Below, in pieces: positions 1,691 through 37,784 of a stretch of 46,079 nt of DNA. Origin of the DNA: an uncultured bacterium (GTDB lineage Bacteria > Patescibacteriota > Minisyncoccia > Phycocordibacterales > UBA6065); contig CAIMLU010000010.1 of NCBI GenBank assembly GCA_903842365.1, positions 1 to 46,079 on the forward strand, read 5' to 3'. The stretch's first letter is position 1. Each line of letters starts with the position of its first letter. The notes under the pieces are model-generated. The model was not told where the DNA came from. It did not search any database and was given only the letters and a program-made list of their open reading frames with translations. The position numbers and the translations under genes are program-made.

Positions 1691-2320
1691 TCGCCGAATT
1701 TCCGAAAACCCCCAGTCCGAAACCCGCCCGCATTCCTCCCCAGACCCCTCCTGCGGGCGGGAAAACAGCCGAGGCAAGGCGAATCCATTCCCCCAGACAA
1801 ATAGTTTCGCCTTGCCTCGTCCGCATTAGTATTTTTAATCATTTGGATTTTGCTCGAAATAGTTTCGAACTTTGTCCAACAAACACCGCATAAAATAAAT
1901 GAAGTGGATGCGAAAGCATTCACTGATTTTATTTTACGGAAGAGAGGGAGATTTGAAAGCCGGAGCCCGGGCCCCATCGAACACGATGGGTGGCGAGGCG
2001 GGGTCGCGGAAATTTACGAGTGACGACGAGTAAATTATCTGTGACCAAATCTTGACCATACCCCCTCCCTCTCTCCGCCCATTAAAATCCCGCTTTTTAT
2101 AAGCGGTGATTTTTATTGGGTGGAGAGAAGTGACTGAACCACTTCAGTCACGTGGGAGATTTGAAAGGAGTTTTGATGTTTTACTAGCAGGTAAAACCAA
2201 AATTCCCGGGTCGGCGAAACATAGAGCGAGGCGACATTTTAAGGTGACCAAATTCCATCCCTCTCCGCATAAAATAAATGAAGTGGATGCAAAAGCATTC
2301 ACTTCATTTATTTTATAAAA
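1691..2320. repeat. orphan array of about three tRNA-3'-end-derived mosaic repeat units separated by terminator-like palindromes
   Basis: Unit boundaries are approximately 1691-1890, 1937-2079 and 2118-2269. Inverted 3'-end-like heads are ggaagagagggagatttgaaag (1938-) and gtggagaga[hairpin 2131-2150]gtgggagatttgaaagg. Direct tails are ctccctctctccgcc (2065-2079) and ccctctccgca (2259-2269). A duplicated terminator palindrome ccgcataaaataaatgaagtggatgc(g/a)aaagcattcac occurs at 1886- and 2265-. Conserved hairpin module at 2002-2046. Confidence 0.6.
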
Positions 2321-3545: not shown

Positions 3546-3593
3546 CAAACAAAGGAGTCCAATGCGAAAGCATTGGACGACTTTTTGTTTGCA

Positions 3594-4030
3594 GGCGGTA
3601 GAGGACTTGAAAGCGAGTGCGGGGTTACCTGTTCAATAGAACGGGTCGCACGAGCAGGGCCGAGAAATTTTATGAGCGGCTGGCGAAATAAAATGTTCTT
3701 GGCCAAGTCCTCCTCTTAAATCCTTAAATCCAACCGTGGGTACTGCTCCCGTAGGGAGAAAGTCCTCATCCAGCGACTTTTTGTTTTCGAGGCGGTAGAG
3801 GATTTGAAAGACGGAGGCCGCGAAGCCGTTTTATTGTACTCAATAAAACGTGGCCGAGTCGGGTGAGATGCGACAACAGGAAGCGTTGCAAGACTCATTG
3901 AGATTTTTTCTGAAAAATCCAATGAGTGGACAGATTCTGTAGGAATCGCGAGCACTTAGTCCACGCAGGGTGTATTCACCCGAGTAGACTTAGTGACTTG
4001 TGACCAAGTCATCCTTGCCTGCGTGAGGGC
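3594..4030 (+). repeat. two tandem tRNA-Val-3'-end-derived mosaic repeat units
   Basis: 3594-3611 (ggcggtagaggacttgaa) is the exact reverse complement of tRNA-Val 3526-3543. A second head at 3791-3808 has one mismatch. Both are preceded by cgactttttgttt. Unit 1 closes with caagtcctc (3705-3713). Conserved hairpin module at 3659-3703. Further hairpins at 3828-3850 and 3893-3927. Confidence 0.55.
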
Positions 4031-9933: not shown

Positions 9934-10006
9934 GCCGAGGTAGCTCAGTTGGTAGAGCGTTCCCCTGAAGAGGGAAGGGTCACCAGTTCAAGTCTGGTCC
10001 TCGGCA
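9934..10006 (+). tRNA. tRNA-Phe (anticodon GAA), CCA not encoded
   Basis: Acceptor gccgagg/cctcggc, anticodon loop ctgaaga, T-arm accag-ttcaagt-ctggt. Confidence 0.9.
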
Positions 10007-10011
10007 CTCGA

Positions 10012-10040
10012 AATAAAACCACCGTACGGTGGTTTTATTA
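10012..10040 (+). terminator. intrinsic terminator after tRNA-Phe
   Basis: Hairpin aaaaccaccg-tac-ggtggtttt followed by a T-rich tract. Confidence 0.65.
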
Positions 10041-10321
10041 TTTAAATTTTGTAACCACGAGTCACTAGGTCTGCTCAGGTAAGTACACCTTGCGCAGAAC
10101 CAAGCACTCACGACCTCGCCTCGCGATTTTTCGAAACGAAAAATATCGCTGTGGCAGGCAGGAATATCGGTCGTTACACGACCAGTACCCACGATTGGGG
10201 CTTTTCATCGTTTGATTACAAACTCAAAAATCCGCTCAATCGAGCTTCGATTCCTGCACGAAATGTGCCCCGCACATTTCTCGGGGGCACAAGAAAAAAG
10301 CGCCTTACGGCGTTTTTCTTG
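10041..10321 (-). repeat. tRNA-Arg-3'-end-derived mosaic repeat unit(s)
   Basis: The + strand carries the sense 3' end of the minus-strand tRNA-Arg: ttcgattcctgc (10246-10257), then a 24-nt hairpin (10258-10281), then cgggggcacaag (10282-10293). A near-perfect palindrome of about 48 nt runs 10282-10329 into the real tRNA. Partial copy ggcaggaat at 10157-10165. Hairpin module at 10123-10149. Shared aaggtgtac module (minus strand) at 10085-10093. Confidence 0.55.
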
Positions 10322-10393
10322 TGCCCCCGGCAGGAATCGAACCTACATCGACTCGTTAGGAGTGAGCCATTCTATCCATTGAACTACGAGGGC
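10322..10393 (-). tRNA. tRNA-Arg (anticodon CCU), CCA not encoded
   Basis: The reverse complement folds as acceptor gccctcg/cgggggc (one G-U pair), anticodon loop ctcctaa, T-arm taggt-tcgattc-ctgcc region. Confidence 0.8.
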
Positions 10394-10779: not shown

Positions 10780-11556
10780 TTATTGATCATCATCAGCGAA
10801 ATATTCATACCCACCAATAAGCGCTGGTGTCGAAAGGAAATACCAAATGACGACATCATCAATCGGGAACACCTTACCGAAAATATGAGTTGGTAAAAGA
10901 TACTCCCCTGGCCACCACCAACTCCCTATTTTAAGTGATACTATTTCATACACAAAAAAGACAATGGCAAAAAAGACTGTTGGTAAAATACTCTTTCTGA
11001 GTAAATGTGGATTCTGCCAAAAGATGAGGAGTGCTGGGATAATGAGTATAATGACTGACATCCCCATGTAACTCGTCTTGAGTAAATCTGGAGTAAAAGC
11101 AAACAGACCAAACACAATAACGGCAAAAACGATAAAGAGATCAACCAGGTACTTAAATCTTGGCGATACGCCACGTTTTGTGTCTCGGTCAACAAAATAT
11201 TCGTAAAATGCTAGTGCCCAAAAGAAGTTAAGGAATGCAAAGAGCATATTTTCGAGCGGTATAAGTCCAAAGGGGCGATAGAAAATACTTTGGACGTCCC
11301 ATGCATCAACCATCCTAAGCGCTAATTCAACCGGTGGAGCAAAAATGAGAGTTGCTGCCAAGGAAAAAATCATAATCTTCCACTTTGACCTTTTGAGCCA
11401 AACAAAGTTAACAATACTTGGTGGGACGAGAACAATAAGGATTGAAAAGAAATAGTACGGTTTTATAAAAAGCACCACAAGGCACGCGATAAAGACATAG
11501 GAGAGAAGGCCAAACAACTTGATTCGCTTTTCTTTGTTCAATGTTTTAAGAAGCAT
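10780..11556 (-). CDS. polytopic membrane protein, possibly a lycopene-cyclase-domain (CrtYc/d-like) protein
   Basis: Two internal repeats each carry a P-x-(E/D)(E/D/N) motif followed by YEYF (IPLENMLFAF...AFYEYF and FPIDDVVIWYF...GGYEYF). The family call is tentative. Confidence 0.4.
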   Translation of the reverse strand: MLLKTLNKEKRIKLFGLLSYVFIACLVVLFIKPYYFFSILIVLVPPSIVNFVWLKRSKWKIMIFSLAATLIFAPPVELALRMVDAWDVQSIFYRPFGLIPLENMLFAFLNFFWALAFYEYFVDRDTKRGVSPRFKYLVDLFIVFAVIVFGLFAFTPDLLKTSYMGMSVIILIIPALLIFWQNPHLLRKSILPTVFFAIVFFVYEIVSLKIGSWWWPGEYLLPTHIFGKVFPIDDVVIWYFLSTPALIGGYEYFADDDQ

Positions 11557-11634: not shown

Positions 11635-12099
11635 ATGGGGGGGGTTATAATTTCGGTATTATATATATTTACACCTAAACACACATACAAAATGCCAAAA
11701 GATTATTGGGATATCGCAAAAAATAACTTTCGTATACTAGCAATCGTCTCAACCGTTCTAACGGTTTTGTATATCCTTAATTTTCTCCAATTTAGGCAAC
11801 CGATACTCCTTATTGGTGCAGCTATGTGTTTAATTGATACTGTAGTGCGATTTGTACTAACATCCCTCTTTAAGAAAAAGTCTCGCAAAGCAATCACCGT
11901 TGGTTATACATATCTTGCATTAGCTTTTACGCTCAACCTCGTAAACTATCTCATATTGAATTCGCCTGCAGATTTTTTTAAACAAGGAATATTGTTTAAA
12001 ATTCTCGGTCTTCTTATTCTTGTCTATCTCTTTAATAACGTATATAAAGCATCTAAACAAGAAATCACTCAACCACAAACAAATCCATCCGCACAGTAA
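11635..12099 (+). CDS. hypothetical membrane protein (alternative start 11692)
   Basis: ORF with about four TM segments, followed by a G-U-containing terminator hairpin at about 12130-12160. Confidence 0.45.
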   Translation: MGGVIISVLYIFTPKHTYKMPKDYWDIAKNNFRILAIVSTVLTVLYILNFLQFRQPILLIGAAMCLIDTVVRFVLTSLFKKKSRKAITVGYTYLALAFTLNLVNYLILNSPADFFKQGILFKILGLLILVYLFNNVYKASKQEITQPQTNPSAQ

Positions 12100-12151
12100 A
12101 CTGTGTACCAACTGAAACAAAACGCCTTCCAATATATGGAGGGTGTTTTTA

Positions 12152-12332
12152 TTTTGTGCGGGATGGGAGTCGGTCACGTGTCTTTTTTCACCGCCGTTCA
12201 AAAAGCACTCGACCCCAGCTCGCGATTTCACGAAACGTGAAATAACGCTCCGCTTTTCGATTCTCCACGCAAGCAAAGCAGTTTGCTTGCTCATCCCGCA
12301 CAAAACAAAAAAGCCTTTCGGCTTTTGTTTTG
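12152..12332 (-). repeat. tRNA-Gly-3'-end-derived mosaic repeat unit (downstream of tRNA-Gly)
   Basis: 18/18-nt direct repeat of the tRNA 3' end plus trailer (12152-12169 = 12328-12345). Inverted copy ttcgattctcc (12257-12267), then a 24-nt hairpin (12268-12291), then catcccgca (12292-12300). Near-perfect palindrome of about 50 nt at 12292-12341. Hairpin module at 12222-12248. Confidence 0.6.
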
Positions 12333-12403
12333 TGCGGGATGGGAGAATCGAACTCCCGCCCTATGCTTGGGAAGCACATGTTCTACCACTAAACCAATCC
12401 CGC
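12333..12403 (-). tRNA. tRNA-Gly (anticodon CCC), CCA not encoded
   Basis: The reverse complement is gcgggat-tg-gttt-agtggta-gaac-a-tgtgc-ttcccaa-gcata-gggc-gggag-ttcgatt-ctccc-atcccgc-a. Confidence 0.9.
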
Positions 12404-12640
12404 AATATTTTATTTTCTAAATTAATTCCGCATGCTTGGGAAGGTCACAGATAATTTTCTGGTGAAAATTTCCGCGACCATTACATGGTCAGTACACCTT
12501 TTGGACGGAGTACCGTCTCAAGAAGGTTTTACGTTCGGGTCCCTTATCCCGAACTCACCCGCCTCGGCCCGTCGGCCTCCGGCCTTGCGCTTGGGGCCCC
12601 TACCCCAAGCTCACATGTTCTACCACTAAACCAATCCCGC
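12404..12640 (-). pseudogene. partial second copy of tRNA-Gly (positions 1-41) interrupted by a 168-nt structured insertion and lacking the 3' half
   Basis: 12612-12640 is identical (29/29) to 12375-12403 (tRNA positions 1-29). 12432-12443 is identical (12/12) to 12363-12374 (anticodon stem and loop). The intervening 12444-12611 is GC-rich with several hairpins, including the module at 12443-12479. Confidence 0.65.
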
Positions 12641-12648
12641 AAGACCTT

Positions 12649-12966
12649 TTATTCCTTAAATTCGTCCGCCGGAAGTATTATAAGCTTCTCATCCCCTTTT
12701 ACAAAACCAAATCGCTCACGAATTTCCCTATCCTTTCCATCAACAAGAGAGAAGCGTGCATTTTCTGCCTCGAGAAAAGCTTGGCGTTTTTCGAGGTTAG
12801 ATAATTTGCCCATCGATATGTCACGCAATTCACGTGCTCGTTCGTATTTACCATAGGCACCATACGTCCCACGAACAACCAAGATAGACACAATAAAAAG
12901 TAAAACGATTACATATCGTGAGTAAAGGGCTTTTTTTGCTTTTCTTTTGCGTTCAAATTCGCGCAT
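12649..12966 (-). CDS. septum formation initiator (FtsB/DivIC-like) protein
   Basis: 105 aa: short basic N-terminus, one TM helix (VIVLLFIVSILVV), a coiled-coil segment and a C-terminal IRERFGFVKGDEKLIIL motif typical of DivIC/FtsB. Confidence 0.65.
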   Translation of the reverse strand: MREFERKRKAKKALYSRYVIVLLFIVSILVVRGTYGAYGKYERARELRDISMGKLSNLEKRQAFLEAENARFSLVDGKDREIRERFGFVKGDEKLIILPADEFKE

Positions 12967-16814: not shown

Positions 16815-16850
16815 AAATCACCCTTTACAGAGTGATTTTTCATACGCGGA
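16815..16850 (-). terminator. intrinsic terminator after the RNase P RNA
   Basis: Hairpin aaaatcaccct-ttac-agagtgatttt. Confidence 0.5.
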
Positions 16851-17200
16851 CCTATAAGCCGAATTCTGTGACGATGCTTTTACGCATCCGACAGTCATTG
16901 ATCTAGGATAAACGTCGCCGTTTACCTCAAGCGGCACTCCTTCAAAACTTTCATCTTGAAGGCACGGCCTTGCACTTCGAGTAAGGATTTTGCCGTTGCA
17001 CCCCTATGCATGACACATAGGACTACGCTCCTTGCGGGGCGCCTCCTCCCTTTTCAAAGAGAAGCGTCTCTGTTCGCACCTCTAGGGTTTCCCCTTGGCA
17101 GGCGTTACCTGCTACTCTTCTACTCCTTGCGAAGTAGCACGTGTTCGGACTTTCCTCACCATGGAAAACCATGGCGTAACTGTCTGGTCCGTACGCACAC
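16851..17200 (-). ncRNA. rnpB: RNase P RNA, bacterial type (ends approximate)
   Basis: The reverse complement contains the universal CR-I motif GAGGAAAGUCCGAAC (about 17140-17160), a 5' GGACCAGACAGU P1/P2 region (17180-17196) and a 3' ACAGAAUUCGGCUUAUAGGUCCGCG (16851-16878) pairing back to the 5' end. This matches the E. coli M1 RNA landmarks. Confidence 0.85.
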
Positions 17201-24252: not shown

Positions 24253-26806
<2,554 letters not shown>

Positions 26807-26811
26807 AACGA

Positions 26812-27396
26812 TTAGAAGTTAAAAATACGTTCTGTTTCAGTAATCTTTCTCACAGCACTAAAGGTATTTGGCTTCCAACTAACAGCAACCGAAATATCCG
26901 CCTCCCTACCTAGAACAGGTTGAGTTATGATAATTTGACGAGAAAACTGCGTCGCAATTGAACCAGATACGTTTTGGTGACTATAAATAGAGGTTACTGG
27001 ATCAAAATAGAGCCGATCGTTCCCTGGCACAAACGACCGTATCGCGTCTGACTCATTCGCAGCAAGATTCGTATTTATCACGCAGGGTGATCCAAGTATA
27101 CATTCAGATAATGTTAAACCATTTGCCCCACCAGTCAACCAATCAGTTGCTGGATTTCCGTTGTTTCGGTGGAGCCTATTACTATCACGAACATTGCGAA
27201 CATATTCAATAGCGTCTTGTGCCAAATAGTACGCGGTTATTTGGTCACGAGCATACATTGCAGACGAAAGACTTTTTTGAGCAATGGTCATAGGGCCTGT
27301 CACCGCCAAAGAAAGCACCGCAATAGCAATGAGTGTTTCAATAAGGGTAAAGCCTTTATGAACCGGTGACTGTTTTAAAAAAGAAAGAGTAGTCAT
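26812..27396 (-). CDS. type IV minor pilin / pseudopilin
   Basis: Class III signal HKG|FTLIETLIAIAVLSLAV (the G-FTLIE N-methylation motif). Confidence 0.75.
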   Translation of the reverse strand: MTTLSFLKQSPVHKGFTLIETLIAIAVLSLAVTGPMTIAQKSLSSAMYARDQITAYYLAQDAIEYVRNVRDSNRLHRNNGNPATDWLTGGANGLTLSECILGSPCVINTNLAANESDAIRSFVPGNDRLYFDPVTSIYSHQNVSGSIATQFSRQIIITQPVLGREADISVAVSWKPNTFSAVRKITETERIFNF

Positions 27397-27401
27397 GGTT
27401 T

Positions 27402-27950
27402 TTATGAGTCTATTGATCTCTGTGAGATAGTTGTCTGGATGTTAAAACTCGACTTTGAATTACCCAAACCAATTGTGCCATTAATAACAAGTATGATACG
27501 TGGTTGAATATCATCAGTGCCAATTCCAAGAGGATAAAAACGCATTGATTCAATCGAAACTTCCGAAGCGGTCATGTCAGCAGTTGAATCAACGCAAGCA
27601 TTTGATCCCATCAAACGTATAATTTTTTTATTAGCAGAATCATACTTGTATTCTATGTGAGGCAATACAGAACTACCGCAGATAGCATGATTAGGAGTGA
27701 AAATAAAATCAGTACAATAAGGAGCACTGCAGTTGTAATTTGAACCCATACGAATTTCGCGCGTCATACTTTCAAGCGCAAAATTAAGATTCGTCATGAC
27801 TGATTTAAGGGAATGCGCTTTTTTATTTGCATCAATAATAGTCGCAAGTGAACCAATTGCGACGAGCATAACTATTGAAAATATCGCCACTGAAACGAGC
27901 ACTTCGACAACAGTGAATCCTCTATTTTGTTTTGGTGTGTAGATGGGCAT
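27402..27950 (-). CDS. type IV minor pilin / pseudopilin
   Basis: NRG|FTVVEVLVSVAIFSIVML prepilin motif. Confidence 0.75.
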   Translation of the reverse strand: MPIYTPKQNRGFTVVEVLVSVAIFSIVMLVAIGSLATIIDANKKAHSLKSVMTNLNFALESMTREIRMGSNYNCSAPYCTDFIFTPNHAICGSSVLPHIEYKYDSANKKIIRLMGSNACVDSTADMTASEVSIESMRFYPLGIGTDDIQPRIILVINGTIGLGNSKSSFNIQTTISQRSIDS

Positions 27951-27955
27951 ATGCG

Positions 27956-28612
27956 TTAGTTACAATCACTTGCATTTCCAGAAATAACTGATATTTGTCC
28001 AGTTGTATTCACGAAAATTTTCCTCTGTGATCCGTCGGGTGCTTTAACGCAAATATGAGCAGATGGATATGTTCCCGGTTGACCACTCTTGCGAATTTCT
28101 GCATCAGGATTTGGTCTCAAGAAAGTAATATCAAGATAATCACTAGGAGAAAACATTTCTGCTGGATCAACACAATTATCTACACAGATTTTCGAAATGG
28201 TCGCCCCACGACGAAGCGAAAAAACCTCGACCTTTCTATCAGAAGAATTGTAGACATGATCAGGATTTGGCGGATCATTATCAGGTGGAGAACTCACGTC
28301 TTCAAATAAAAAGAATGAGCCTGAATTGGGAACAAAATGAATACCGTATCCGGACTGAAATTGTAAACCAGTACCGGCAACCGTGCCAGCAGTTTTTTTA
28401 ATATTAACACCATAGGATTGTGCCTCACGAATCGCGAGGGCAACTTCATACGCGGTGTTTGTAAGGAGGATTGAGGAATTAAATCTACTGTTATTGAATA
28501 CCGCCACTGTTGTGATGACGGAAAAGATTGCCACCGACGTCAAAAGCTCGATCAGGGTGAACCCCCTATCTGCCCTACTCGCTGTTTTTTTGTGTGGTGA
28601 GAGCAATTTCAT
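27956..28612 (-). CDS. type IV minor pilin / pseudopilin
   Basis: DRG|FTLIELLTSVAIFSVITTV prepilin motif. Confidence 0.75.
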   Translation of the reverse strand: MKLLSPHKKTASRADRGFTLIELLTSVAIFSVITTVAVFNNSRFNSSILLTNTAYEVALAIREAQSYGVNIKKTAGTVAGTGLQFQSGYGIHFVPNSGSFFLFEDVSSPPDNDPPNPDHVYNSSDRKVEVFSLRRGATISKICVDNCVDPAEMFSPSDYLDITFLRPNPDAEIRKSGQPGTYPSAHICVKAPDGSQRKIFVNTTGQISVISGNASDCN

Positions 28613-28623
28613 ACTAGAAACAA

Positions 28624-29433
28624 TTATAAACCAAACGAGACATAGTGTGCTATGGCTGCCATGTCCACAGAGAAAAAGAAGGCGATGGCAGTTCCAACCG
28701 CAAGAAATGGACCAAACGGAACTTCAGATTTAAGTGATAGTCCTTTTTTCTTTAGAAAAACTTTTTGCACCGCAATGATTCCTAGGGTGCAAATAGTTCC
28801 AACCCAAAAGGCAAGCATCATCGCAGCAACACCTTGAGAAAGCCCGAGGAAAAAAGCGAGTCCGACGGAAAGTTTTGCATCACCGAGGCCAATTCCTTTT
28901 CCGCGCGTGATAATCCAAACGATAAGAAAAAAGAATGGGATATAGATAGCGGCCAAAAGATCGTTAGGATTTGGTACAACGAATGCGCCTGTTCGAACAA
29001 ATGAAAACGCACACCCTAACATCGCGAGGATGAGTGAGTGAAAATCAAAAATGAGTTTGTGCCGTATATCGTATGCAGATACAACAATGAGGAGAAGAAA
29101 AAACGCAGCGGCAAGAATCCATGAGACGAAACCAATCACCGAAAGTGGTTGTATAACAACGTAGGATCCGACAACAATAACAGTCGAAATTATTTCAACG
29201 ACTGGATACTGCCATGATATACGTGACTTACACCCACGGCATTTACCCTTCTGTACAAAAAAACTAAATACCGGAACAAGCTCCTTCCATGTAAGCGTTT
29301 TACCACATGAGAAACACTGTGACCTCCCCTTTGCTGGAGACAAACCTGATCCAATGCGAAGGATAACAACATTGAGGAAACTACCCACAATGAGCCCCAT
29401 ACCTGTAATGAATATGTAGAAAATGAAATCCAT
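28624..29433 (-). CDS. pilD: prepilin peptidase (A24 family)
   Basis: N-terminal CFSCGKTL...CRGCKSRISWQYP zinc-binding cysteines and a polytopic body with GLGDAKL, the catalytic Asp motif. Confidence 0.88.
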   Translation of the reverse strand: MDFIFYIFITGMGLIVGSFLNVVILRIGSGLSPAKGRSQCFSCGKTLTWKELVPVFSFFVQKGKCRGCKSRISWQYPVVEIISTVIVVGSYVVIQPLSVIGFVSWILAAAFFLLLIVVSAYDIRHKLIFDFHSLILAMLGCAFSFVRTGAFVVPNPNDLLAAIYIPFFFLIVWIITRGKGIGLGDAKLSVGLAFFLGLSQGVAAMMLAFWVGTICTLGIIAVQKVFLKKKGLSLKSEVPFGPFLAVGTAIAFFFSVDMAAIAHYVSFGL

Positions 29434-29436
29434 ACG

Positions 29437-29880
29437 TTATTTGTAAACTTTAAAAACAGTCGATGGTGAAAATGTTACCGATGTACATTTGGTTGAATCA
29501 AACGCTTCCATGCTTGATGGTGCGCTCTCTACAACAATACCAAGACAGTAATGTTTGTTTGATGAAGCAATCCGTTCGTACCGATAATTTTCTCCAATAG
29601 GTGGAACTGGTGGTACAACTGTTTGTGATAAAAACCCACCAGTCTTAAGAGGGTCTTGCCAAGTGGTACCACCAGTGGTTCCATCCACTGTTGGTGGGTA
29701 CTCACGATTAACGTCTTTGTATAATTCAAGAGCAAGTTGTAATTCACGAATGTCAGCCTGACGACGAAGGTCACGCGACTTTGCGCGTGATGCACTTGTC
29801 GAAGCGATAACAACCGTTGTGAGTATTGTCGCAATAGCAACAACAACCATAAGCTCGATCAGTGTAAATCCCCTTTTCAT
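29437..29880 (-). CDS. type IV pilin
   Basis: MKRG|FTLIELMVVVAIATIL prepilin motif. 147 aa. Confidence 0.8.
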   Translation of the reverse strand: MKRGFTLIELMVVVAIATILTTVVIASTSASRAKSRDLRRQADIRELQLALELYKDVNREYPPTVDGTTGGTTWQDPLKTGGFLSQTVVPPVPPIGENYRYERIASSNKHYCLGIVVESAPSSMEAFDSTKCTSVTFSPSTVFKVYK

Positions 29881-29961
29881 ATATCGTGAATTATACCGCG
29901 CAAACTCTTTTTAAGGAAACAAAAAAACCGCCATAAGGCGGTTTTTTGTTTTAAAGAAAAC

Positions 29962-30387
29962 TTAACAAGATGTCGAAGCTGCTGTAAGAGTTGATGTAGT
30001 AGTTGATTTCGAAGCACCTGATGAGTCAACACACCACCATGAACCACCCTTGAGGGTTGCTGCTGCTACCCATGACTCACTACCAGTTGGAATGTTACAG
30101 TTGATGGCAGTCGCATTGCTTGTGATGTTTGCAATGATGCCAGTTGAACTTGCAAAGAAGCTAGCTGCTGTGTTACATGCCAAACCAACTGCGCCATATG
30201 AGCCACCATTTGCATCAAAGAACATTTCTGCCTGTGAGCGGAGCTGACCCATGGCTGCCTTTGCTGCTGCATCAGCACCCTTTGAACGTGCAGTGTTAAG
30301 TGATGCGAGAACGATCGAAGCCAAGATGCCGATGATGGCGATGACGACGAGGAGCTCGATCAAGGTGAAACCTTTTGAATTCTTCAT
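29962..30387 (-). CDS. pilA: type IV pilin (candidate major pilin) with a C-terminal Cys-bounded Ser/Thr-rich loop
   Basis: MKNSKG|[31 protein letters not shown]. It has its own upstream non-coding region of about 320 nt and a strong terminator (29923-29950). It ends ...[25 protein letters not shown]. Confidence 0.8.
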
Positions 30388-30707
30388 AGTGAAGTGATTG
30401 ATATATTACGTACTTAATAAAGATTCACAGATTCCCGCCGAAGCACTCGAACGTCTTTTGCAAGCGATTCGGTGGGCTCTGGAATCTGTATCTCGCGAAA
30501 TCCTTGCGCGGGATGCGCATATTGTACCATAAAGTGATGAATGGGTGTTATGGAAAGATATCCACACAACAACCCACATCTCTTGAACAAAGCGATTAGA
30601 AATTGGAAGTGCCCTCGTAGCATGACATGTTTTCATTCACGAAAACAAAAATACTCTTGTGGTGCAAAAAAACCACCCGAGGGTGGTTTTTTTGTTTTAA
30701 AGAAAAC

Positions 30708-30944
30708 TTAACAAGATGTCGAAGCTGCTGTGAGAGTTACGGTTGATGTTGATTTCGAAGCACCGGTTGAGTCTACGCACCAATAAGTGCCAGTGTCTTG
30801 AGAGGGTGTGATAACTGCCCATGCTATTGGAATAACGCTGTAGGTTATACCCTCAACTACATCAGTAATACCCTTGGTAATAGCTGTTGAACTTGCGAGG
30901 AAACTCATGTTGCAACCAGCATCAATTCCATTTCCATCGGACCA
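30708..30944 (-). pseudogene. leader-less, promoter-less pilin C-terminal cassette (homologous to the variable and C-terminal part of the 29962-30387 pilin)
   Basis: The frame is open from 30944, immediately after an in-frame TAA at 30945-30947. It has no prepilin leader or alpha-1 helix. It reads ...DAGCNMSFLASSTAITKG...[25 protein letters not shown]. Its 3' end plus 3' UTR (30687-30785) duplicates 29942-30040, with the first 44 nt identical. Confidence 0.65.
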
Positions 30945-30956
30945 TTAATAAGCGTA

Positions 30957-31364
30957 TTAGTTACAGGTAGTTCCCGACCGTGTCGTAGACGCAGAAAGAC
31001 CTTTTGAATCAACACACCAAATTGGCCCACCCTGGAGCGTTGCTGAAACCGCCCATGCGTTACCGTTTGCCTCACAAGCAAGTGTGCCTGGTTTAATACG
31101 GGTATTTATGTTTGCAAAAATATGTGCAAGCGAATTAAACATATCATTCCCCGCACAGTCGATCGTAAATACTCCATAATCATGGTACGTATCAAAATAT
31201 ATTTCTGCCTGTGCGCGGAGCTGACCCATGGCTGACTTTGCAGCACCATCAACACCTTTTGTACGCACAACATTAAGAGACGACATTACAATCGCTGCAA
31301 GTATTCCAATAATAGAAATAACAACGAGGAGTTCCATAAGTGTAAAACCTGATGATGGTCGCAT
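30957..31364 (-). CDS. type IV pilin
   Basis: MRPSSG|FTLMELLVVISIIGILAAIVMSSLNVVRTKG. The Met at 31364 was chosen. The C-terminal region WCVDSKGLSASTTRSGTTCN is related to the other pilins. Confidence 0.8.
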   Translation of the reverse strand: MRPSSGFTLMELLVVISIIGILAAIVMSSLNVVRTKGVDGAAKSAMGQLRAQAEIYFDTYHDYGVFTIDCAGNDMFNSLAHIFANINTRIKPGTLACEANGNAWAVSATLQGGPIWCVDSKGLSASTTRSGTTCN

Positions 31365-31488
31365 TGTATATACAATAAAAAGTAATTGGTTGAGATCATT
31401 AGGGTATAAGTCCGGCAATATCCATGGAGCATCGAAACGGTATCGCTAATGAAGATCATTCTGAGTATACCTTTGATTCAGTCAAATA

Positions 31489-31520
31489 AAAAGAAGCGTG
31501 TTGTACTACGCTTCTTTTTA
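31489..31520 (-). terminator. intrinsic terminator after pilC
   Basis: aaaagaagcgt-gttgtact-acgcttctttt hairpin. Confidence 0.55.
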
Positions 31521-31541
31521 CACATATACTGTAGAAACAGT

Positions 31542-32750
31542 CTATGAAATATTTGAGGATAGGTTGTAGATAGGAACAAGAACCGCAGTAAGGAGAAAAC
31601 CAACACCCAAACCAAGAGCGACGATCATTATTGGTTCAATAAGGTCAACCATAGTGTCAACGGCGCTCGTCACCTCACGACGATAAAAGTTTGAGAGGGT
31701 CTTTAATATGCTGCCTAATTCTCCAGACTCTTCACCAACCTTGATCATCTGAATCATAATCGATGGAATCTCTTTTTTATTCGAAAGCGCATCAGACACC
31801 GTCCTACCTGCCTTCACTGAATCCATCGCCTCGGCTATGATGTCTCTATAAATAACATTTCCAACAACTCCGGAGGTAAGTTCGAGAGCACGTACCATAG
31901 GAATTCCAGACACAAGCATTGTATTCATGTTGTCTGAGATACGTGAAAGGTACAATTTTTGGTAGAGATTCTTTACCACAGGAATAACTATTTTTGCTTC
32001 ATCAAGCGATCTCTTGCCCCCTTCTGTTTTAAAGAATTGGTACAAGAAGAATCCCCCGACAGCCGCAATGATAAGAATAAAGTACCCGTAGTGAACAAAA
32101 AATTGACTGATTCCAATAACAACCTGTGTGTAGAGCGGAATTGCTTGCCCCGATTCAGTGATAATTGCACTGATTTTTGGAATAACGAGTGTAAGCATGA
32201 GAACCATAACGGATATGAAGGTAAAGACAACGAACGCAGGATACACAAGGGCGTTCTTTGCTTTCGAGTTTACTTCGTACGTACGATCAAGGTGATCAGC
32301 AAGATAATTGAAAATCTCATCCAATCGACCTGACTCTTCACCAGACTTTACCATGTTTACATAGAAATCAGAGAAGACCTTTGGGTGCTTTGAAAGCGCT
32401 TTTGAAATAGAACTACCACCCTGCAAATCATCAGACACTTCATTCAACACGCGCGAGAGAACGTACGACGATGATTCACCTCCAAGAAGTCTAAATATAC
32501 GGAGAGCAGAAACTTGGGCGGTAAAGAGTGTTGCCATCTGTCTTGAGAGAACGACGACGTCTTTTTGTTTCACTCCACCAAAGAACGTAAAATCTTTTTT
32601 AAAGAAAGAGACGTTTTCAGCAGGTGTAACAGCACTCACAATAAGCCCACGCCTTTGAAGGGATGAGATGGCAACATCCATACTAACCGCATCAATCGAA
32701 CCGTGTGATTCGGCCCCTTTTTGATCAAGAGCCTTATAATTAAAAAGCAT
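31542..32750 (-). CDS. pilC: type IV pilus platform protein PilC (GspF/T2SS-F family)
   Basis: 402 aa with two T2SSF repeats (...LSKALSKHPKVFSDFYVNMVKSGEESGRLD... and ...VSDALSNKKEIPSIMIQMIKVGEESGELG...). Confidence 0.9.
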   Translation of the reverse strand: MLFNYKALDQKGAESHGSIDAVSMDVAISSLQRRGLIVSAVTPAENVSFFKKDFTFFGGVKQKDVVVLSRQMATLFTAQVSALRIFRLLGGESSSYVLSRVLNEVSDDLQGGSSISKALSKHPKVFSDFYVNMVKSGEESGRLDEIFNYLADHLDRTYEVNSKAKNALVYPAFVVFTFISVMVLMLTLVIPKISAIITESGQAIPLYTQVVIGISQFFVHYGYFILIIAAVGGFFLYQFFKTEGGKRSLDEAKIVIPVVKNLYQKLYLSRISDNMNTMLVSGIPMVRALELTSGVVGNVIYRDIIAEAMDSVKAGRTVSDALSNKKEIPSIMIQMIKVGEESGELGSILKTLSNFYRREVTSAVDTMVDLIEPIMIVALGLGVGFLLTAVLVPIYNLSSNIS

Positions 32751-32769
32751 ATGTATACACTATATATGA

Positions 32770-33831
32770 TTATATAAGCCGTTCGAGAATTTGTGGGTTT
32801 GGGGAATATTGAATCGCATTCTCGACAGTTATTTCACCTTTTCGCACAAGTTCTGACAAACAACGATTCATATCGATCATGTCATTTTCCATGCCGGTCT
32901 CAATGAGGGTATTGATTTCATGAATTCGTTTTTCACGAATAAGGTTTGCAACTGCTGGGTTTACCACAAGCAATTCATATGCAGGGACAAGACCTCCTGA
33001 AATACGAGGAATGAGGCGCTGTGAAAAGATTCCGGTAAGCGTCGATGCAAGTTGAATACGGATCTGATCCTGCTGAGCCGCTGGAAACGAGTCGATAATG
33101 CGGTTGATAGTCTGTGCGGCGGTGTTGGTGTGGAGAGTTGAAAAAACCAAGTGACCTGTCTCCGCTGCGGTTACTGCGGTTGCCATTGTTTCAGTTCCAC
33201 GCATTTCACCGATAAGAATAACATCGACATCCTGACGAAAAACGCTTCTGAGTGCAGTTGAAAAGTCATACGTATCTACACGCACTTCACGTTGATCGAC
33301 AACAGATTTTTTTTGTTTGTACGTATATTCAATGGGGTCTTCGATTGTAACAATATGCTCCGCACTGTTTTCATTAATTCTATCGACCATCGCAGCAAGC
33401 GTTGTTGATTTACCATGTCCAACAGGACCCACGACGAGAAAGAATCCTTGTTGCTTTTCAGTAAAACGTTCGAGGATTGATGGTAGGTTTAGTTCTTCAA
33501 AAGAACGAATTCTGTTTGGGATGAGGCGGAACGCAAACGACACAGCACCCTGTTGAAAGAACCCGTTGCCACGGAAACGGGCAGTATCGCCATGCGCATA
33601 CGAAAAGTCTATTTCTTTATTTTTTATAAAAAGCGCCTTGTCGTCTGGATTCAAAACAACACCCATAAACTTGAGCGTATCTTCTTTGGTAAGAATTTTC
33701 TTACTCATTATAGGAACAAGAAAACCCGACACACGAATGGTTGGGTAACGTCCATCAGAGATATGCAAGTCCGAAGCGGACTCCTTCATAACGATATCTA
33801 TTAAATCCTGAAATTCTTGTTTGTAATCCAT
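32770..33831 (-). CDS. pilT: twitching-motility retraction ATPase PilT
   Basis: 353 aa. Walker A GPVGHGKST, Asp box, Walker B ILIGEMRG, His box TGHLVFSTLHT. Confidence 0.9.
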   Translation of the reverse strand: MDYKQEFQDLIDIVMKESASDLHISDGRYPTIRVSGFLVPIMSKKILTKEDTLKFMGVVLNPDDKALFIKNKEIDFSYAHGDTARFRGNGFFQQGAVSFAFRLIPNRIRSFEELNLPSILERFTEKQQGFFLVVGPVGHGKSTTLAAMVDRINENSAEHIVTIEDPIEYTYKQKKSVVDQREVRVDTYDFSTALRSVFRQDVDVILIGEMRGTETMATAVTAAETGHLVFSTLHTNTAAQTINRIIDSFPAAQQDQIRIQLASTLTGIFSQRLIPRISGGLVPAYELLVVNPAVANLIREKRIHEINTLIETGMENDMIDMNRCLSELVRKGEITVENAIQYSPNPQILERLI

Positions 33832-33865
33832 GGACTAAGGAACTATAAAAGTGAGATGTGTAAAA

Positions 33866-34285
33866 CTAAACTGCTTTTGCCACCTTTGAACCGCGATGTT
33901 CGTCATATATCTTTCGAACCTCAACCAAAACTTCCGAAGGAATAGTGCTTGCTTTAACGATGTACCCTTCAACCCCTAACGCCTGTGCTGCATTAATATC
34001 AGACGACTGACCTTGATTTGTAAGCATTACAACAACCGACTGTTCGGCAAGCTTTTCTGTTTTGATTATCTTTAAGAGTTCAAGACCCGTCATGTACGGC
34101 ATGATGATGTCGAGCACCAAGATATCTGGCTTTGCTGCGCCTGAACGAAGCCTTACGAGGGCGTCTGGAGAACCGTTAATAGCTTCTACGTCGTAGCCAT
34201 TATTCTGGAATTTAAGAGCATACATCCCCAGGAGGAATTTATCGTCGTCAACAATCATTATGCTTAATTTCTTTTCGTCTGCCAT
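33866..34285 (-). CDS. single-domain response regulator (CheY-like receiver only)
   Basis: IMIVDDD acidic pocket, phospho-acceptor context ILVLDIIMP, conserved T (MLTN) and K (YIVKA). No output domain. Confidence 0.85.
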   Translation of the reverse strand: MADEKKLSIMIVDDDKFLLGMYALKFQNNGYDVEAINGSPDALVRLRSGAAKPDILVLDIIMPYMTGLELLKIIKTEKLAEQSVVVMLTNQGQSSDINAAQALGVEGYIVKASTIPSEVLVEVRKIYDEHRGSKVAKAV

Positions 34286-34328
34286 AAATATAGATGGAAT
34301 TAATGTAATGTGTTTCTAAAGTATACCA

Positions 34329-36047
34329 TTAAAGCTCATTAACGGCGCTCCATGGAATCTTTTTATCGAATGCCTTCATCATTGCGTCTTCTTTCATTGT
34401 TGTAAAGCCCTTCAATCGAGCAATCTTGAAGAGATCCTCTTCTGACTTATTTGCAAGAATCGCACGTTCAAATTCATGATCAAATTCAACAACTTCAGCA
34501 ACTGCAACACGACCCTTAATACCTGTCGGGTAAATATTAGATGGCTCTGCGCTATACACGTTCTCACCAATCTTAATCCCCGCTCGATATTCGGCTGGTA
34601 AATCTTCGAATTCCTTTTCAAGCATAATTTTTATGCTGTCCTGCACAGGAATGGCTTTCTCACATCCTGGCGCGATTTTACCAACAAGACGTTGTGCGAG
34701 CGTCATGATAAGTGTTGGTGCAATAAGATACGGATCAACCCCCATATCAACAAGACGGGCAACGACTCCAATGGCTGTGTTGGTGTGGATGGTTGAAATA
34801 ACCAAGTGACCTGTAAGTGCCGCCTGAATTGCAAGCTGGGCTGTCTCACGGTCACGAATTTCACCCACCATAATAATATCTGGATCTTGACGAAGCGCTG
34901 TTCGTAATCCATTTGCGAACGAATACCCAATATCTGCACGAACTTGAGATTGGTTAACACCTTCAATGTTGTACTCAACAGGATCTTCAAGTGTTAGGAT
35001 ATTTACCTTTTCATCATTGAGCTCACTCATCATCGCTGACACGGTTGTTGATTTACCGGAACCAGTAGGACCAGAAATAAGAATCATTCCGTACGGTCGA
35101 CCCATTGCACGGCGTATAGCGTCTATGATTCTTTGATCAAAACCAATGTCCTCAATTTTTTTAACGCCCGCATCTTGGTCCAAAATACGCATAACCACTT
35201 TTTCACCATGGTATGCGGGAAATGTTGAAACACGGAAGTCTATTTTTTTTCCTTCGATTCGAGCCGAGAAGCGACCGTCTTGCGGCTTACGCTTCTCGTC
35301 GAGTTTCATGTTTGAAAGTATTTTGATACGTGCGACAACAGCCTCATGCACTTTCATAGGCAGAACGAGTGAAGTGAAAAGGTCACCGTCAACACGAAAC
35401 CTCACACGCAACCTATCAACCATACGTTCAATGTGAACGTCTGACGCTGAACCTTCAACCGCGTAACGCAAAATTGTCGCTACGATTTTAGTAACAGGGG
35501 CGTCTTCTATGATAGTTGCCTTTGAATCCCCCGCCCCAGGTTCTGGTTTTTTGGGAGCCGCATCGGCATCAATATCAGCAATATCAGTCTCAAGTTCAGA
35601 AAGAGCCTTGGTAACCTCACCGGAAAGACCACGGTATAATTGTACCGATTGGACGAAATCAGCCTCAGAAACAAGAAAGGCTTTGAATGGCATTTTCGCA
35701 CGCGCAGAAATAAAGTTAAGCGCATCACGTGCCTCTATATCATCTGGATCAACGATACCAACTTCGAGCACCCCCTGGCGCACAGCAATAGGTATGAATT
35801 TATAATGATTAGCTGATTCTTCGGGAATAAACTGTAGGACATCAAAAGGAATTTCAACGCCACTTAAACTCATCGCAGAAATACCATAATATTCACTCTT
35901 TGCAAGGAGGATATCGTTCTCTGAAACACCGTGCTTCTGGAGGACATGTTCGGTTGTTTCGCCAGTCATCCGCGTATCTTCCTGAATGGCAATTAACGCC
36001 TTTTTATCGATTTTTTTTTGCTCGAGGAGAATATCAAGTATTGTCAT
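34329..36047 (-). CDS. pilB: type IV pilus assembly ATPase PilB (GspE family)
   Basis: 572 aa. N-terminal T2SSE_N-like domain, Walker A GPTGSGKST, Walker B IMVGEIRD, His box TGHLVISTIHT. The usual tetracysteine motif is not evident. Confidence 0.9.
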   Translation of the reverse strand: MTILDILLEQKKIDKKALIAIQEDTRMTGETTEHVLQKHGVSENDILLAKSEYYGISAMSLSGVEIPFDVLQFIPEESANHYKFIPIAVRQGVLEVGIVDPDDIEARDALNFISARAKMPFKAFLVSEADFVQSVQLYRGLSGEVTKALSELETDIADIDADAAPKKPEPGAGDSKATIIEDAPVTKIVATILRYAVEGSASDVHIERMVDRLRVRFRVDGDLFTSLVLPMKVHEAVVARIKILSNMKLDEKRKPQDGRFSARIEGKKIDFRVSTFPAYHGEKVVMRILDQDAGVKKIEDIGFDQRIIDAIRRAMGRPYGMILISGPTGSGKSTTVSAMMSELNDEKVNILTLEDPVEYNIEGVNQSQVRADIGYSFANGLRTALRQDPDIIMVGEIRDRETAQLAIQAALTGHLVISTIHTNTAIGVVARLVDMGVDPYLIAPTLIMTLAQRLVGKIAPGCEKAIPVQDSIKIMLEKEFEDLPAEYRAGIKIGENVYSAEPSNIYPTGIKGRVAVAEVVEFDHEFERAILANKSEEDLFKIARLKGFTTMKEDAMMKAFDKKIPWSAVNEL

Positions 36048-36067
36048 TATAAATGAAAGCTAAAAAA

Positions 36068-36451: not shown

Positions 36452-36461
36452 GGTGGTTGTT

Positions 36462-36998: not shown

Positions 36999-37003
36999 AG
37001 GTT

Positions 37004-37660: not shown

Positions 37661-37784
37661 GTTGTATATGGTTACGAGTGCACAGAGCACCCGAAAGCTA
37701 TGCCGACTATTCTATCACCCGACACCGCTTGTGGCTATCCACACTTTTTTAAAAAACATCCGCCGTTCACAACGTGGATGTTTT

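Follow-up and report, generated by a model that had tools for sequence, protein, structure and literature searches.

The window analyzed here, 46,079 nt of a contig described as a Patescibacteria-type metagenomic scaffold, raised a simple question: why does an intact tRNA-Gly(CCC) gene stand between blocks of non-coding DNA that repeat pieces of its own ends? An earlier note had placed this gene on the minus strand at 12333-12403 and had read both flanks as mosaics assembled from the tRNA itself. Our analysis indicated that the mosaics belong to an apparently undescribed family of small folded repeats lying downstream of tRNA and transfer-messenger RNA (tmRNA) genes in many genomes of the Patescibacteria, also known as the candidate phyla radiation (CPR). 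The units are modular, measure approximately 140-250 nt, and colonize the 3′ side of these genes without inactivating the tRNA. They were best explained, with a probability of about one half, as non-autonomous, structured mobile (or selfish) elements that target the 3′ ends of tRNA genes and are mobilized in trans. Observed directly were a conserved core with single-strand folding, arms copied from the neighboring tRNA, a strict orientation and position, copies that are patchy, nested, arrayed, and decaying, and no linked enzyme.

The tRNA-Gly(CCC) locus

The tRNA genes were called with ARAGORN and Rfam, RNA families were searched in Rfam 15, and repeats of the window were compared by blastn-short within a 3-kb set of intergenic regions, in which the repeats at tRNA-Gly had E-values of 1e-5 to 1e-13. 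Two other assemblies, overlapping 22 kb and 7 kb of the window, were identical to it base for base, and a third encoded the same MscL protein; because independent assemblies are identical, the repeat structure is not an assembly artefact. The pieces of the locus are given below in the direction of the tRNA, with L numbers denoting loci from other assemblies.

12677-12704, minus strand: promoter-like site upstream of the displaced 5′ fragment (consensus match only)
12612-12640, minus strand: displaced tRNA-Gly 5′ fragment, positions 1-29 (31/31 repeat; also in L123)
12558-12611, minus strand: 5′ part of the upstream element, with hairpin GCTTGGGG..CCCCAAGC, J1/2 GCAAGGCCGGAG, a short P2, and J2/3 CGAGGCGGG (alignment, fold)
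12480-12557, minus strand: nested 78-nt module of a second family (core-2 type), ending in GGTGTACTG and a small hairpin (missing from the otherwise collinear L123; recurs in L058 and L105)
12443-12479, minus strand: P3 hairpin of the element inside the tRNA-Gly 5′ fragment, matching the family consensus GGTCGCGGAAAT..ATTATCTGTGACC (repeat I2, 36/37 to 41210-41246; covariance-model match 12443-12500)
12404-12443, minus strand: duplicated leader (12404-12431) and fragment with tRNA positions 30-42 (12431-12443) (12/12 repeat; leader similarity family D11; alignment)
12332/12333-12403, minus strand: intact tRNA-Gly(CCC) (ARAGORN; Rfam tRNA, 68.3 bits)
12302-12331, minus strand: trailer and small GC hairpin with a T run (hairpin 12309-12326), the center of the 50-nt palindrome 12292-12341 (terminator-like site; inverted repeat I18, 19/19)
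12292-12301, minus strand: left arm, acceptor part, repeating the acceptor 3′ strand and discriminator of tRNA-Gly in inverted orientation (repeat comparison; pairs with 12156-12165 in the minimum free energy, MFE, fold)
12268-12291, minus strand: hairpin HP, AGCAAGC-AAACTGCTTT-GCTTGCG, at the acceptor/T-stem junction of the left arm (same module and position in other loci; fold)
12256-12266, minus strand: left arm, T part, an inverted copy of the T-stem 3′ strand and T-loop (GGAGAATCGAA) (sequence comparison)
12172-12260, minus strand: core-1 three-way junction with P1.1 (12250-12252 with 12216-12218), P2 (12221-12247), and P3 (12172-12214) (covariance model R1, 66.2 bits, E = 6e-15; fold reproduces the helices)
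12152-12171, minus strand: right arm, repeating in direct orientation the 3′ half of the T-loop, the 3′ strands of the T-stem and acceptor stem, the discriminator, and 5 nt of the trailer of tRNA-Gly (22/23 to 12323-12345)
12119-12149, no strand assigned: terminator-like hairpin after the Gly unit, shared with the convergent open reading frame (ORF) 11635-12099

Every repeat and hairpin that the earlier note listed at 12152-12640 was recovered at its stated place, and on the downstream side its reading was largely borne out. Its near-perfect palindrome of about 50 nt consists of 12292-12310 set against 12323-12341, matching at 19/19 positions across a 12-nt spacer. The 24-nt hairpin at 12268-12291 separates the acceptor part of the left arm (12292-12301) from the T-stem part (12256-12266) exactly at the acceptor/T-stem junction. 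This hairpin had been called unrelated; it is indeed not tRNA sequence, but it is a conserved module (HP) occupying the same place in seven other loci (L047, L056, L091, L086, L106, L138, and L199). The form AGCAAGC..AACTGCTT..GCTTGCG stood between the left-arm halves in several unrelated metagenome-assembled genomes (MAGs) and was identical in three of them; left arms are often interrupted in this way. The hairpin module recognized within the core of about 90 nt is P2 of core-1 (12221-12247), part of a covarying family, and the second direct copy of the 3′ end, given as 18/18 nt, lies within a longer match in which 12147-12169 equals 12323-12345 at 22/23 positions.

On the upstream side, the described duplicate of tRNA positions 1-29 extends to 31/31 positions (12612-12642 = 12375-12405), and the continuation of the tRNA at 12432-12443 equals 12363-12374 at 12/12. 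The fragment is a tandem duplication of approximately 28 nt of leader and tRNA positions 1-42, carries an element, and is common to the related locus L123. The 168-nt insertion reported at 12444-12611 was present and structured, but it proved to be composite: a single core-1 element whose P3 is split off by a nested 78-nt core-2-type module (12480-12557). In L123, whose LepA is 94% identical, the same tRNA-Gly 5′ fragment held the same element without the 78-nt module. The sole promoter-like site at the locus, a consensus match, lies upstream of the 5′ fragment, and if it were used, the upstream element would belong to the tRNA-Gly leader transcript. The general claim that the flanks are built from pieces of the tRNA applied to the arms, which are tRNA copies, but not to the rest: only about 20-25 nt at each unit end is tRNA-derived, and the cores and the 24-nt hairpin are conserved non-tRNA modules.

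The core, its arms, and their predicted fold

The hairpin GGTCGCGGAAAT..ATCTGTGACC occurs three times in the window (repeats I2 and I14), and an exact-pattern scan for it, run on one genome per species, returned more than 119 matches. Among those listed, nearly all were in MAGs labelled Patescibacteria/CPR, including Paceibacteria, Saccharibacteria, Kaiser-, Zambryski-, Lloyd-, and Moranibacteria, along with others. The remaining listed matches were in unclassified "uncultured bacterium" bins and in three third-party-annotation (TPA) bins labelled "uncultured Bdellovibrionales" (L047, L050, and L055), where canonical copies stood beside tRNA-Arg or tRNA-Lys; these bins are either mislabelled CPR genomes or a sign that the family reaches beyond CPR. 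The listed matches shared further sequence upstream of the hairpin. An alignment of 51 non-identical copies gave a consensus core of about 90 nt with three helices (P1.1, P2, and P3), composed of the junction GNCGGAG, a 3-bp P1.1, an internal loop, hairpin P2, the junction GAGN'CGG, and hairpin P3, in which a bulged A is conserved 9 nt from the 3′ end.

Base pairing in this core was strongly conserved. Compensatory changes were seen at 17 of the 31 pairs, and the middle pair of P1.1 occurred as AU (18 copies), GC (15), CG (14), and UA (4) and was broken in none. Paired cells made up 96.5% of the alignment, as against 79.9% in column shuffles (0/500 of which reached the observed value) and 30-46% when partners were slid by 1-3 columns. 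Approximately 33 G.U pairs were counted against approximately nine A.C, two of the G.U pairs being invariant in P3 at positions fixed by the search pattern; the folding strand is therefore the tRNA-sense strand, and the excess is compatible with folding as either RNA or single-stranded DNA (ssDNA). A covariance model (R1) built from other genomes only found 137 copies in 100 fetched loci and, when run on the window, eight copies there at E < 1e-4, in agreement with the statement of the earlier note that the cores share short modules. The conserved three-way junction of about 90 nt is, across the Patescibacteria, the functional heart of the unit.

The element was also said not to be a recognizable class. 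In the window and 34 loci, Rfam 15 reported, at the gathering score, tRNA, tmRNA, RNase P, and LOOT only, none overlapping the units, and a search at E ≤ 10 over the Gly region and a canonical unit returned noise only; a literature search yielded no description of these elements. The LOOT RNA (RF03000) was at 5621-5752 of L067, a Lloydbacteria contig in which the element lies about 3.5 kb away on the other strand, with no evident link between them.

A second core family, core-2, has the same arms and HP as core-1 and a sequence unrelated to it, with a stem CCCGATTG/CAATCGGG followed by GGGTACTG, a small CCTGTAAGG hairpin, and the right arm. It was present in the window at 10169-10244 (minus strand) and 41033-41101 (plus strand), with its 3′ module at 3738-3758 (plus strand), and in eight other loci; in L058 the core-2 module lies within the P2 region of core-1. 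The short motif GAACGAAGTG(A/G) recurred right behind tRNA 3′ ends or P3 in unrelated MAGs (L047, L108, L052, L014, and L025) and is perhaps another module of the system. A by-eye comparison of a few units did not uphold a kissing interaction of the HP loop (CUGC) with AGCA loops.

The bulged A of P3 raised the idea of a self-splicing or self-cleaving RNA, an intron or small ribozyme inserted in tRNA sequence, as did the pairing of the left arm with the upstream tRNA end in the manner of an internal guide sequence and the copy that interrupts the tRNA-Gly 5′ fragment in the anticodon arm. We regard this as very improbable: a core of about 90 nt falls well short of the size of a group I or II intron, splicing is not required by the adjacent tRNA genes, which are intact, no intron or ribozyme family of Rfam matched even at E ≤ 10, and a by-eye reading of the core revealed no core motif of the hammerhead, hepatitis delta virus (HDV), or hairpin ribozymes. 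The interrupted tRNA-Gly fragment itself cannot yield a tRNA, because its T arm is missing. Domains V/VI of a group II intron, suggested by the bulged A and by a GUGCG-like 5′ start seen in some units, were rejected, as the GUGCG varies with the tRNA end (e.g., GUGUGAC beside tRNA-Glu), the P2 bulge is on the wrong strand, and neither Intron_gpI nor Intron_gpII was matched at that threshold. Hammerhead, HDV, hairpin-ribozyme, and kink-turn motifs were likewise not seen by eye in the junctions. An analogy with retron non-coding RNA or the omega-RNA of TnpB/IscB was set aside, since no reverse transcriptase or TnpB gene adjoined the element in the loci examined and insertion into a real T-loop would have left the tRNA 5′ part on the left side, where an inverted arm is seen.

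The association with tRNA genes was directional. Among the 106 listed core-1 matches with enough upstream sequence to be evaluated, 85 had a tRNA or tmRNA gene on the same strand ending no more than 400 nt upstream, as against 8.4% of random positions in the same loci, and an opposite-strand tRNA at that upstream distance was found for only 5 of the 106. The listed matches represented 17 isoacceptor families and tmRNA. Two orphan arrays in the window stand without a tRNA. In L015 and L066, ARAGORN called a tRNA with the anticodon TTA ("tRNA-Stop"), and in L015 the element is directly downstream of it.

The arms match the adjacent gene. The 3′ flank of core-1 copies the 3′ end of the neighboring tRNA, with a longest common stretch of up to 20 nt, and two types of junction were distinguished. 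At the T-loop type, P3 is followed directly by a tRNA copy running from position 57 to the discriminator and a few trailer bases; at the acceptor-end type, "ACA.." comes after P3, and the complement of the left arm is found in the final 4-9 nt of the tRNA together with its trailer. The direct repeat is correspondingly about 3-5 nt long in the "ACA" type and about 20-25 nt long in the T-loop type. In L009, where the tRNA has the atypical T-loop TGCAAGT, the left arm reads ACTTGCA; because it mirrors this atypical loop, the left arm represents a genuine inversion of the 3′ portion of the tRNA rather than a copy of its 5′ strand. The right arms derive from the gene or its precursor, because CCA was not consistently present and the gene trailer was often included; an origin from mature tRNA was unsupported on the same grounds.

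Because TTCGAA is itself palindromic, an inverted arm and a direct arm together form an acceptor/T-arm minihelix. The earlier note had proposed that a transcribed unit could fold with its ends forming such a helix, and the RNA fold predicted for 12150-12301 (minus strand) agreed (-68.6 kcal/mol, z = -6.3): the MFE structure reproduces the unit architecture, with a closing helix of 10 acceptor-like and 4 T-like bp, HP as a branch, and then the three core helices. On paper, the T-loop of this minihelix is occupied by the core, and HP branches off at the point from which the D and anticodon arms of a real tRNA emerge. When the tRNA was included in the fold, the left arm paired with the tRNA's own 3′ part and the right arm with the 5′ acceptor strand; because the best fold re-pairs both arms, the arms can compete with the tRNA fold. 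Selection at the RNA level did not show in the mismatches of the arm helix. A first count was too noisy and one based on the predicted fold was biased towards G.U, and the unbiased count gave 3 G.T, 9 A.C, and 20 other, which is no evidence either way for selection on the arm helix.

This architecture would suit the main rival explanation, less probable than a mobile element but of substantial weight, in which the unit serves as a gene or cis-element and its product is a functional RNA, a top-half mimic of the neighboring tRNA. The arms would then be its acceptor and T stems, HP would mark the exit point of the D and anticodon arms, and the core would replace the T-loop. RNase P would perhaps mature the 5′ end on the left-arm side, and the discriminator of the right arm would be served by RNase Z or exonucleases with the CCA-adding enzyme. 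With the core as its active part, the product might, for example, bind a protein, interfere with tRNA 3′ processing as a decoy or regulate it, or even be a minihelix that can be charged; we regard all of this as tentative. The strong covariation of the core, its sense-strand G.U pairs, and the position of the units directly downstream of the tRNA and in its orientation would all be expected of such an RNA, as would the predicted fold with its z-score of -6.3 and the exact placement of HP at the acceptor/T junction with either core. Differences between paralogues of a single genome are compensatory, with the junctions constant, and larger variants hold a core-2 module in the P2 region of core-1, much like the peripheral domains of large structured RNAs. 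However, most orthologous tRNA loci lack a unit, and many copies are clearly decayed, including those at tRNA-Val and tRNA-Arg of the window. A terminator-like hairpin usually lies between tRNA and unit, inspection of promoter- and terminator-like sites revealed no evident promoter for the unit, and the arm helix has no excess of G.U over A.C. A mimic RNA also gives no reason for copying the adjacent tRNA instead of using one fixed acceptor stem.

Turnover, missing enzymes, and the favored explanation

A comparison of orthologous loci, as the earlier note had proposed, showed that units are present at some tRNA-Gly and tRNA-Arg loci and absent from others. The gene order LepA, tRNA-Gly(CCC), glutaredoxin, tRNA-Arg(CCT), tRNA-Phe recurred in many of 80 LepA-anchored loci, a set unselected for the element, of which only 9 held a core-1 match. 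In these loci, 9 of 93 evaluable tRNAs were followed 125-155 nt downstream by a direct copy of their own last 14 nt, and none had such a copy upstream. The tRNA-Gly site was empty in L147 and L136 and filled in L153 and the window. Elsewhere, units formed tandem arrays of up to 4-5 (L020 and L086), and the core-1 copies of the window ranged from near-consensus to badly decayed, with scores falling from 92 to 26 bits. Within the set of 80 loci, no filled locus had an empty counterpart closer than about 80% nucleotide identity, identical contigs excepted, and exact-protein look-ups matched the same strain only.

The earlier note had also stated that the window encodes no integrase, transposase, or reverse transcriptase, and the ORF searches agreed: neither these enzymes nor a Nop-domain protein was among the ORFs of the 46 kb, which are housekeeping genes, type IV pilus genes, or ORFs of no family. 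Recurrent neighbors in the 119 listed element-bearing loci (942 ORFs) were housekeeping genes, presumably MurD-like, LepA, RuvA, HolA, MiaA, ParB, FtsH, and SmpB (named from their sequences, with no Pfam scan). A motif screen of these ORFs returned only 3-4 with a tyrosine-recombinase motif and a single, weak HUH-motif ORF. The window has no RAYT, and viral contigs, scanned twice for exact patterns, yielded no match.

These surveys bear on the reading of the units as attL/attR scars, or remnants similar to cis-mobilizable elements (CIMEs), of integrase-carrying islands or prophages in tRNA genes. A 2002 account by Williams reportedly has tyrosine integrases using the very sublocations seen here (T-loop, 3′ end, and anticodon loop), which would fit this reading, and a direct repeat of the tRNA 3′ end does flank the element. 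Beside tRNA-Ser, moreover, a 2-kb cargo is bordered on both sides by a 55-nt, 98% identical repeat. Mobile-element integration is a known source of tRNA gene fragments (PMC9897764), another point in its favor. We nevertheless consider it unlikely. The segment between the repeats is only about 140-250 nt and contains a conserved, covarying core rather than random remnants, integration does not produce inverted copies of tRNA ends, integrases were absent from the window and not enriched in the 119 listed loci, and the two exact-pattern scans of viral contigs matched nothing. Sequence-specific att sites also do not fit, because one core family adjoins 17 tRNA types. The outcomes that the earlier note had named as fatal to its proposal did not occur: no integrase-bearing relatives were seen at the junctions, the cores were shared and covaried, and Rfam did not identify the units.

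We favor the interpretation of the units as non-autonomous elements mobilized in trans. The element would be, or would have been, mobile, inserting or being copied at three sublocations of the tRNA, namely T-loop, acceptor end, and, in at least one case, anticodon arm. Its arms would be derived from the target at or after insertion, and a factor from another part of the genome would recognize its core in single-stranded form, be this ssDNA or RNA. The direct repeat on its flanks would keep the tRNA intact and permit precise loss. Together with competence, the repeat could also allow spread into empty alleles of the same tRNA by homologous recombination; the competence-related genes of the window comprise pilus genes and a ComF-like gene. 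A move to a new tRNA species would need both arms to be templated from the target, with fold-back synthesis from a hairpin and a guide-like left arm as two candidate ways.

Several points weigh against this interpretation. Conservation of the junction nucleotides and of the foot of helix P3 extends to CPR groups as remote from each other as Saccharibacteria and Paceibacteria (part of P3 being fixed by the search pattern), and paralogous cores in one genome differ by compensatory changes while the junctions stay fixed; both facts suit a functional RNA no less than a selfish repeat. That two core families have HP at precisely the acceptor/T junction has the look of tRNA mimicry by design, which simple fold-back copying of the target would not give, and its conservation inside the left arm argues against plain fold-back copying. 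The features of a classical miniature inverted-repeat transposable element (MITE) fail, as the terminal repeats are not the same in every copy and the direct repeat can be as short as about 3 nt or as long as about 25 nt. The patchy distribution could also reflect repeated loss of an old RNA gene through the flanking direct repeats. Finally, neither a mobilizing enzyme nor an intermediate came to light, and none of the 80 LepA-anchored loci offered a recent insertion paired with a near-identical empty site.

The same arrangement of inverted 3′ end, core, and direct 3′ end, matching the local tRNA, recurs in the window at tRNA-Val, tRNA-Arg, tRNA-Ser, and an orphan array, as had been reported, and additionally in a second orphan array at 43117-43420. 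The copies and units are as follows.

1953-2046, plus strand: core-1 copy (R1 92.0 bits, the best in the window)
12172-12260, minus strand: core-1 copy (R1 66.2 bits)
41177-41246, plus strand: core-1 copy (R1 55.2 bits)
3607-3704, plus strand: core-1 copy (R1 42.2 bits)
12443-12500, minus strand: core-1 copy (R1 34 bits)
2161-2249, plus strand: core-1 copy (R1 33.2 bits)
10053-10161, minus strand: core-1 copy (R1 31.2 bits)
43174-43267, plus strand: core-1 copy (R1 26.4 bits)
1937-2269, plus strand: orphan array without a tRNA, two units with core-1 at 1953-2046 and 2161-2249 and arms like a tRNA-Ser-type 3′ end (R1 92.0 and 33.2 bits)
3584-3723, plus strand: tRNA-Val unit 1, with contiguous left arm (3584-3611), core-1 (3607-3704), and degenerate right arm (3705-3723) (I3, 28 nt at 93%; R1 42.2 bits)
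3738-4023, plus strand: tRNA-Val outer units, with core-2 3′ module (3738-3758), right arm (3759-3777), second left arm (3789-3810), degenerate core, and right arm (4006-4023) (I4, D17)
10150-10291, minus strand: tRNA-Arg unit 1, with left arm acceptor part (10282-10291), hairpin (10259-10281), left arm T part (10245-10258), core-2 (10169-10244), and right arm (10150-10168) (I16, 20 nt at 95%)
10053-10161, minus strand: tRNA-Arg unit 2, a degenerate core-1 (R1 31.2 bits)
40986-41123, plus strand: tRNA-Ser unit 1, with left arm and hairpin (40986-41032), core-2 (41033-41101), and right arm (41102-41123) (sequence comparison)
41123-41265, plus strand: tRNA-Ser unit 2, with left arm and hairpin (41131-41160), core-1 (41177-41246), and right arm (41247-41265) (R1 55.2 bits)
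43117-43420, plus strand: orphan array, with left arm (55 nt, 98% identical to 41119-41173), core-1 (43174-43267), right arm (43268-43284), and then a copy of the Ser unit-1 type (D7, D3; R1 26.4 bits)

Between the tRNA-Ser units and the second orphan array (40951-43440) lies the 2-kb segment mentioned above, which carries a fragment of an Rce1-like CAAX protease (41682-42104) and a DUF4386 membrane protein (42220-42891). It is flanked by the 55-nt direct repeat of unit sequence (41119-41173 = 43117-43171, 98% identical, D7) and looks like cargo captured or inserted via recombination between units. A homopolymer of about 17 C (43419-43436) ends this array, just before the stop of a minus-strand ORF of 431 aa. 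Another assembly of the region, L202, begins at its record position 1 about 1.35 kb upstream of the MscL gene; its end would, from gene offsets rather than an alignment, fall near position 1749 of the window, inside the first orphan array.

In the region 9934-10393 of the window, the tRNA-Phe(GAA) gene is inverted relative to the order LepA, tRNA-Gly, tRNA-Arg, tRNA-Phe of most relatives (compared with L147, L132, L124, L134, and L160) and converges on tRNA-Arg, with the Arg units between both genes; in L158, tRNA-Arg is inverted instead. Such local inversions of tRNA genes may be driven by the inverted arms. Two ORFs without a family match, 10780-11556 (minus strand) and 11635-12099 (plus strand), separate the Gly unit from the glutaredoxin gene, a gene that in L147 and L136 stands close behind tRNA-Gly with none in between. 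The bacterial class A RNase P RNA at 16839-17195 (minus strand) is divergent, because its 108 bits are barely above the gathering score of 100. A type IV pilus cluster at 26288-38909 encodes PilM, PilO, two T2SSE ATPases, T2SSF, a prepilin peptidase, and at least six pilins with the N-methyl motif, including diverged tandem pilin duplicates (repeat families D1, D2, and D6; 29921-31418).

Comparison with known systems

Patescibacteria have genomes of about 1 Mb with little non-coding room, and the window gives approximately 2.5 kb to the units. If the units are mobile, their targeting would follow a principle undescribed for bacterial repeats, in which the ends copy the target and essential RNA genes are left unharmed. 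If they encode a functional RNA, a widespread and strongly covarying class is missing from Rfam, one that would bear on minihelix biology and on tRNA processing in reduced genomes. Either way, the units account for breaks in the assembly, fragmentary tRNA genes, and local rearrangements of CPR MAGs, and a covariance model is ready for use in annotation.

The earlier note had offered, besides the top-half mimic, a DNA element resembling MITEs or repetitive extragenic palindromic (REP) sequences, with ends templated by the target, and both proposals are compatible with the data. The arms do match the local tRNA as this second proposal requires, but constant termini, a fixed duplication, and a short palindrome, as expected of the classical forms, do not apply. 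REP sequences and their bacterial interspersed mosaic elements (BIMEs), as well as REPINs, are mobilized by RAYT enzymes, which are IS200/IS605-like. Like the units, they are extragenic, form hairpins and mosaic arrays, and are non-autonomous; they fold as one strand, tolerate G.T pairs and bulges, and have their enzyme encoded elsewhere, if at all. REPs, however, are palindromes of 20-40 nt with one family-wide sequence and are not tied to tRNA genes, whereas the units have a three-way junction of about 90 nt and tRNA-dependent ends, stand behind a tRNA or tmRNA in 80% of cases, and are accompanied by no RAYT in the window.

Islands in tRNA and tmRNA genes and their CIME remnants, which are products of tyrosine integrases, share the targets of the units (T-loop, 3′ end, and anticodon loop). 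They too leave the tRNA intact and place a displaced direct copy of its 3′ end at the far junction, and in the units the tRNA 3′ segment was directly repeated at both junctions with the tRNA regenerated. Neither an integrase inside the element nor derivation from an integrase-bearing element was found in the window, the 119 loci, or the viral scans. In contrast to islands and CIMEs, the units are only about 140-250 nt long, have an inverted copy of the target and a covarying core, and adjoin at least 17 tRNA types.

Classical MITEs such as Correia/NEMIS, RUP, and ERIC resemble the units in being small, non-coding, multi-copy, and patchy, with inverted termini and sometimes nested or arrayed copies. 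Their termini are constant within a family and their target duplication is short and fixed, whereas the arms of the units differed between the Gly, Val, Arg, and Ser copies and across the 17 isoacceptor types, and the direct repeat, at about 3 to about 25 nt, had no fixed short length. No autonomous, transposase-bearing relative of the element was present in the window.

The t-elements of plant mitochondria, mascRNA, viral tRNA-like structures, and the tRNA-like domain of tmRNA each have one fixed sequence per gene and keep the T-loop. Their likeness to the units is the closing helix resembling the acceptor and T stems, with which the MFE structure predicted for 12150-12301 (minus strand) also closes; such a helix could recruit RNase P, RNase Z, and the CCA-adding enzyme. 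The units differ in that the mimic copies the neighboring tRNA, that a 90-nt junction replaces the T-loop, and that the likeness is known here from a predicted fold. GC-rich palindromes and double-hairpin elements of fungal and sponge mitochondria are also hairpin repeats without an enzyme of their own that invade intergenic DNA, often beside tRNA genes (PMC2800124); they have other hosts and sequences and are without copies of tRNA ends or a conserved multi-helix core. TIGR-Tas arrays consist of 36-nt units with two spacers of about 9 nt between box C/D-like repeats and an adjoining Tas gene with a Nop domain (PMC12045711), and they were rejected as a match on account of the 140-250 nt size of the units and the lack of a Nop-domain protein among the window ORFs.

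The units fail a defining feature of each comparison family examined, be it constant termini, a fixed duplication, a short palindrome, an integrase, or an Rfam match. There is a substantial chance, though one well below even, that they form a new class of tRNA-shaped elements, in which a conserved structured core sits in a minihelix whose two strands are both re-templated from the adjoining tRNA or tmRNA gene; that the finding is categorically new in kind is, in our judgement, a prospect of similar weight. In one possible version, such a class would be a programmable, RNA- or ssDNA-guided insertion system homing to the 3′ ends of tRNA genes, with the left arm as a guide of about 20 nt and the right arm as the regenerated target. 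In another, equally put forward as a possibility, the units would be Patescibacteria-specific, tRNA-top-half RNAs, processed by RNase P and RNase Z and possibly chargeable.

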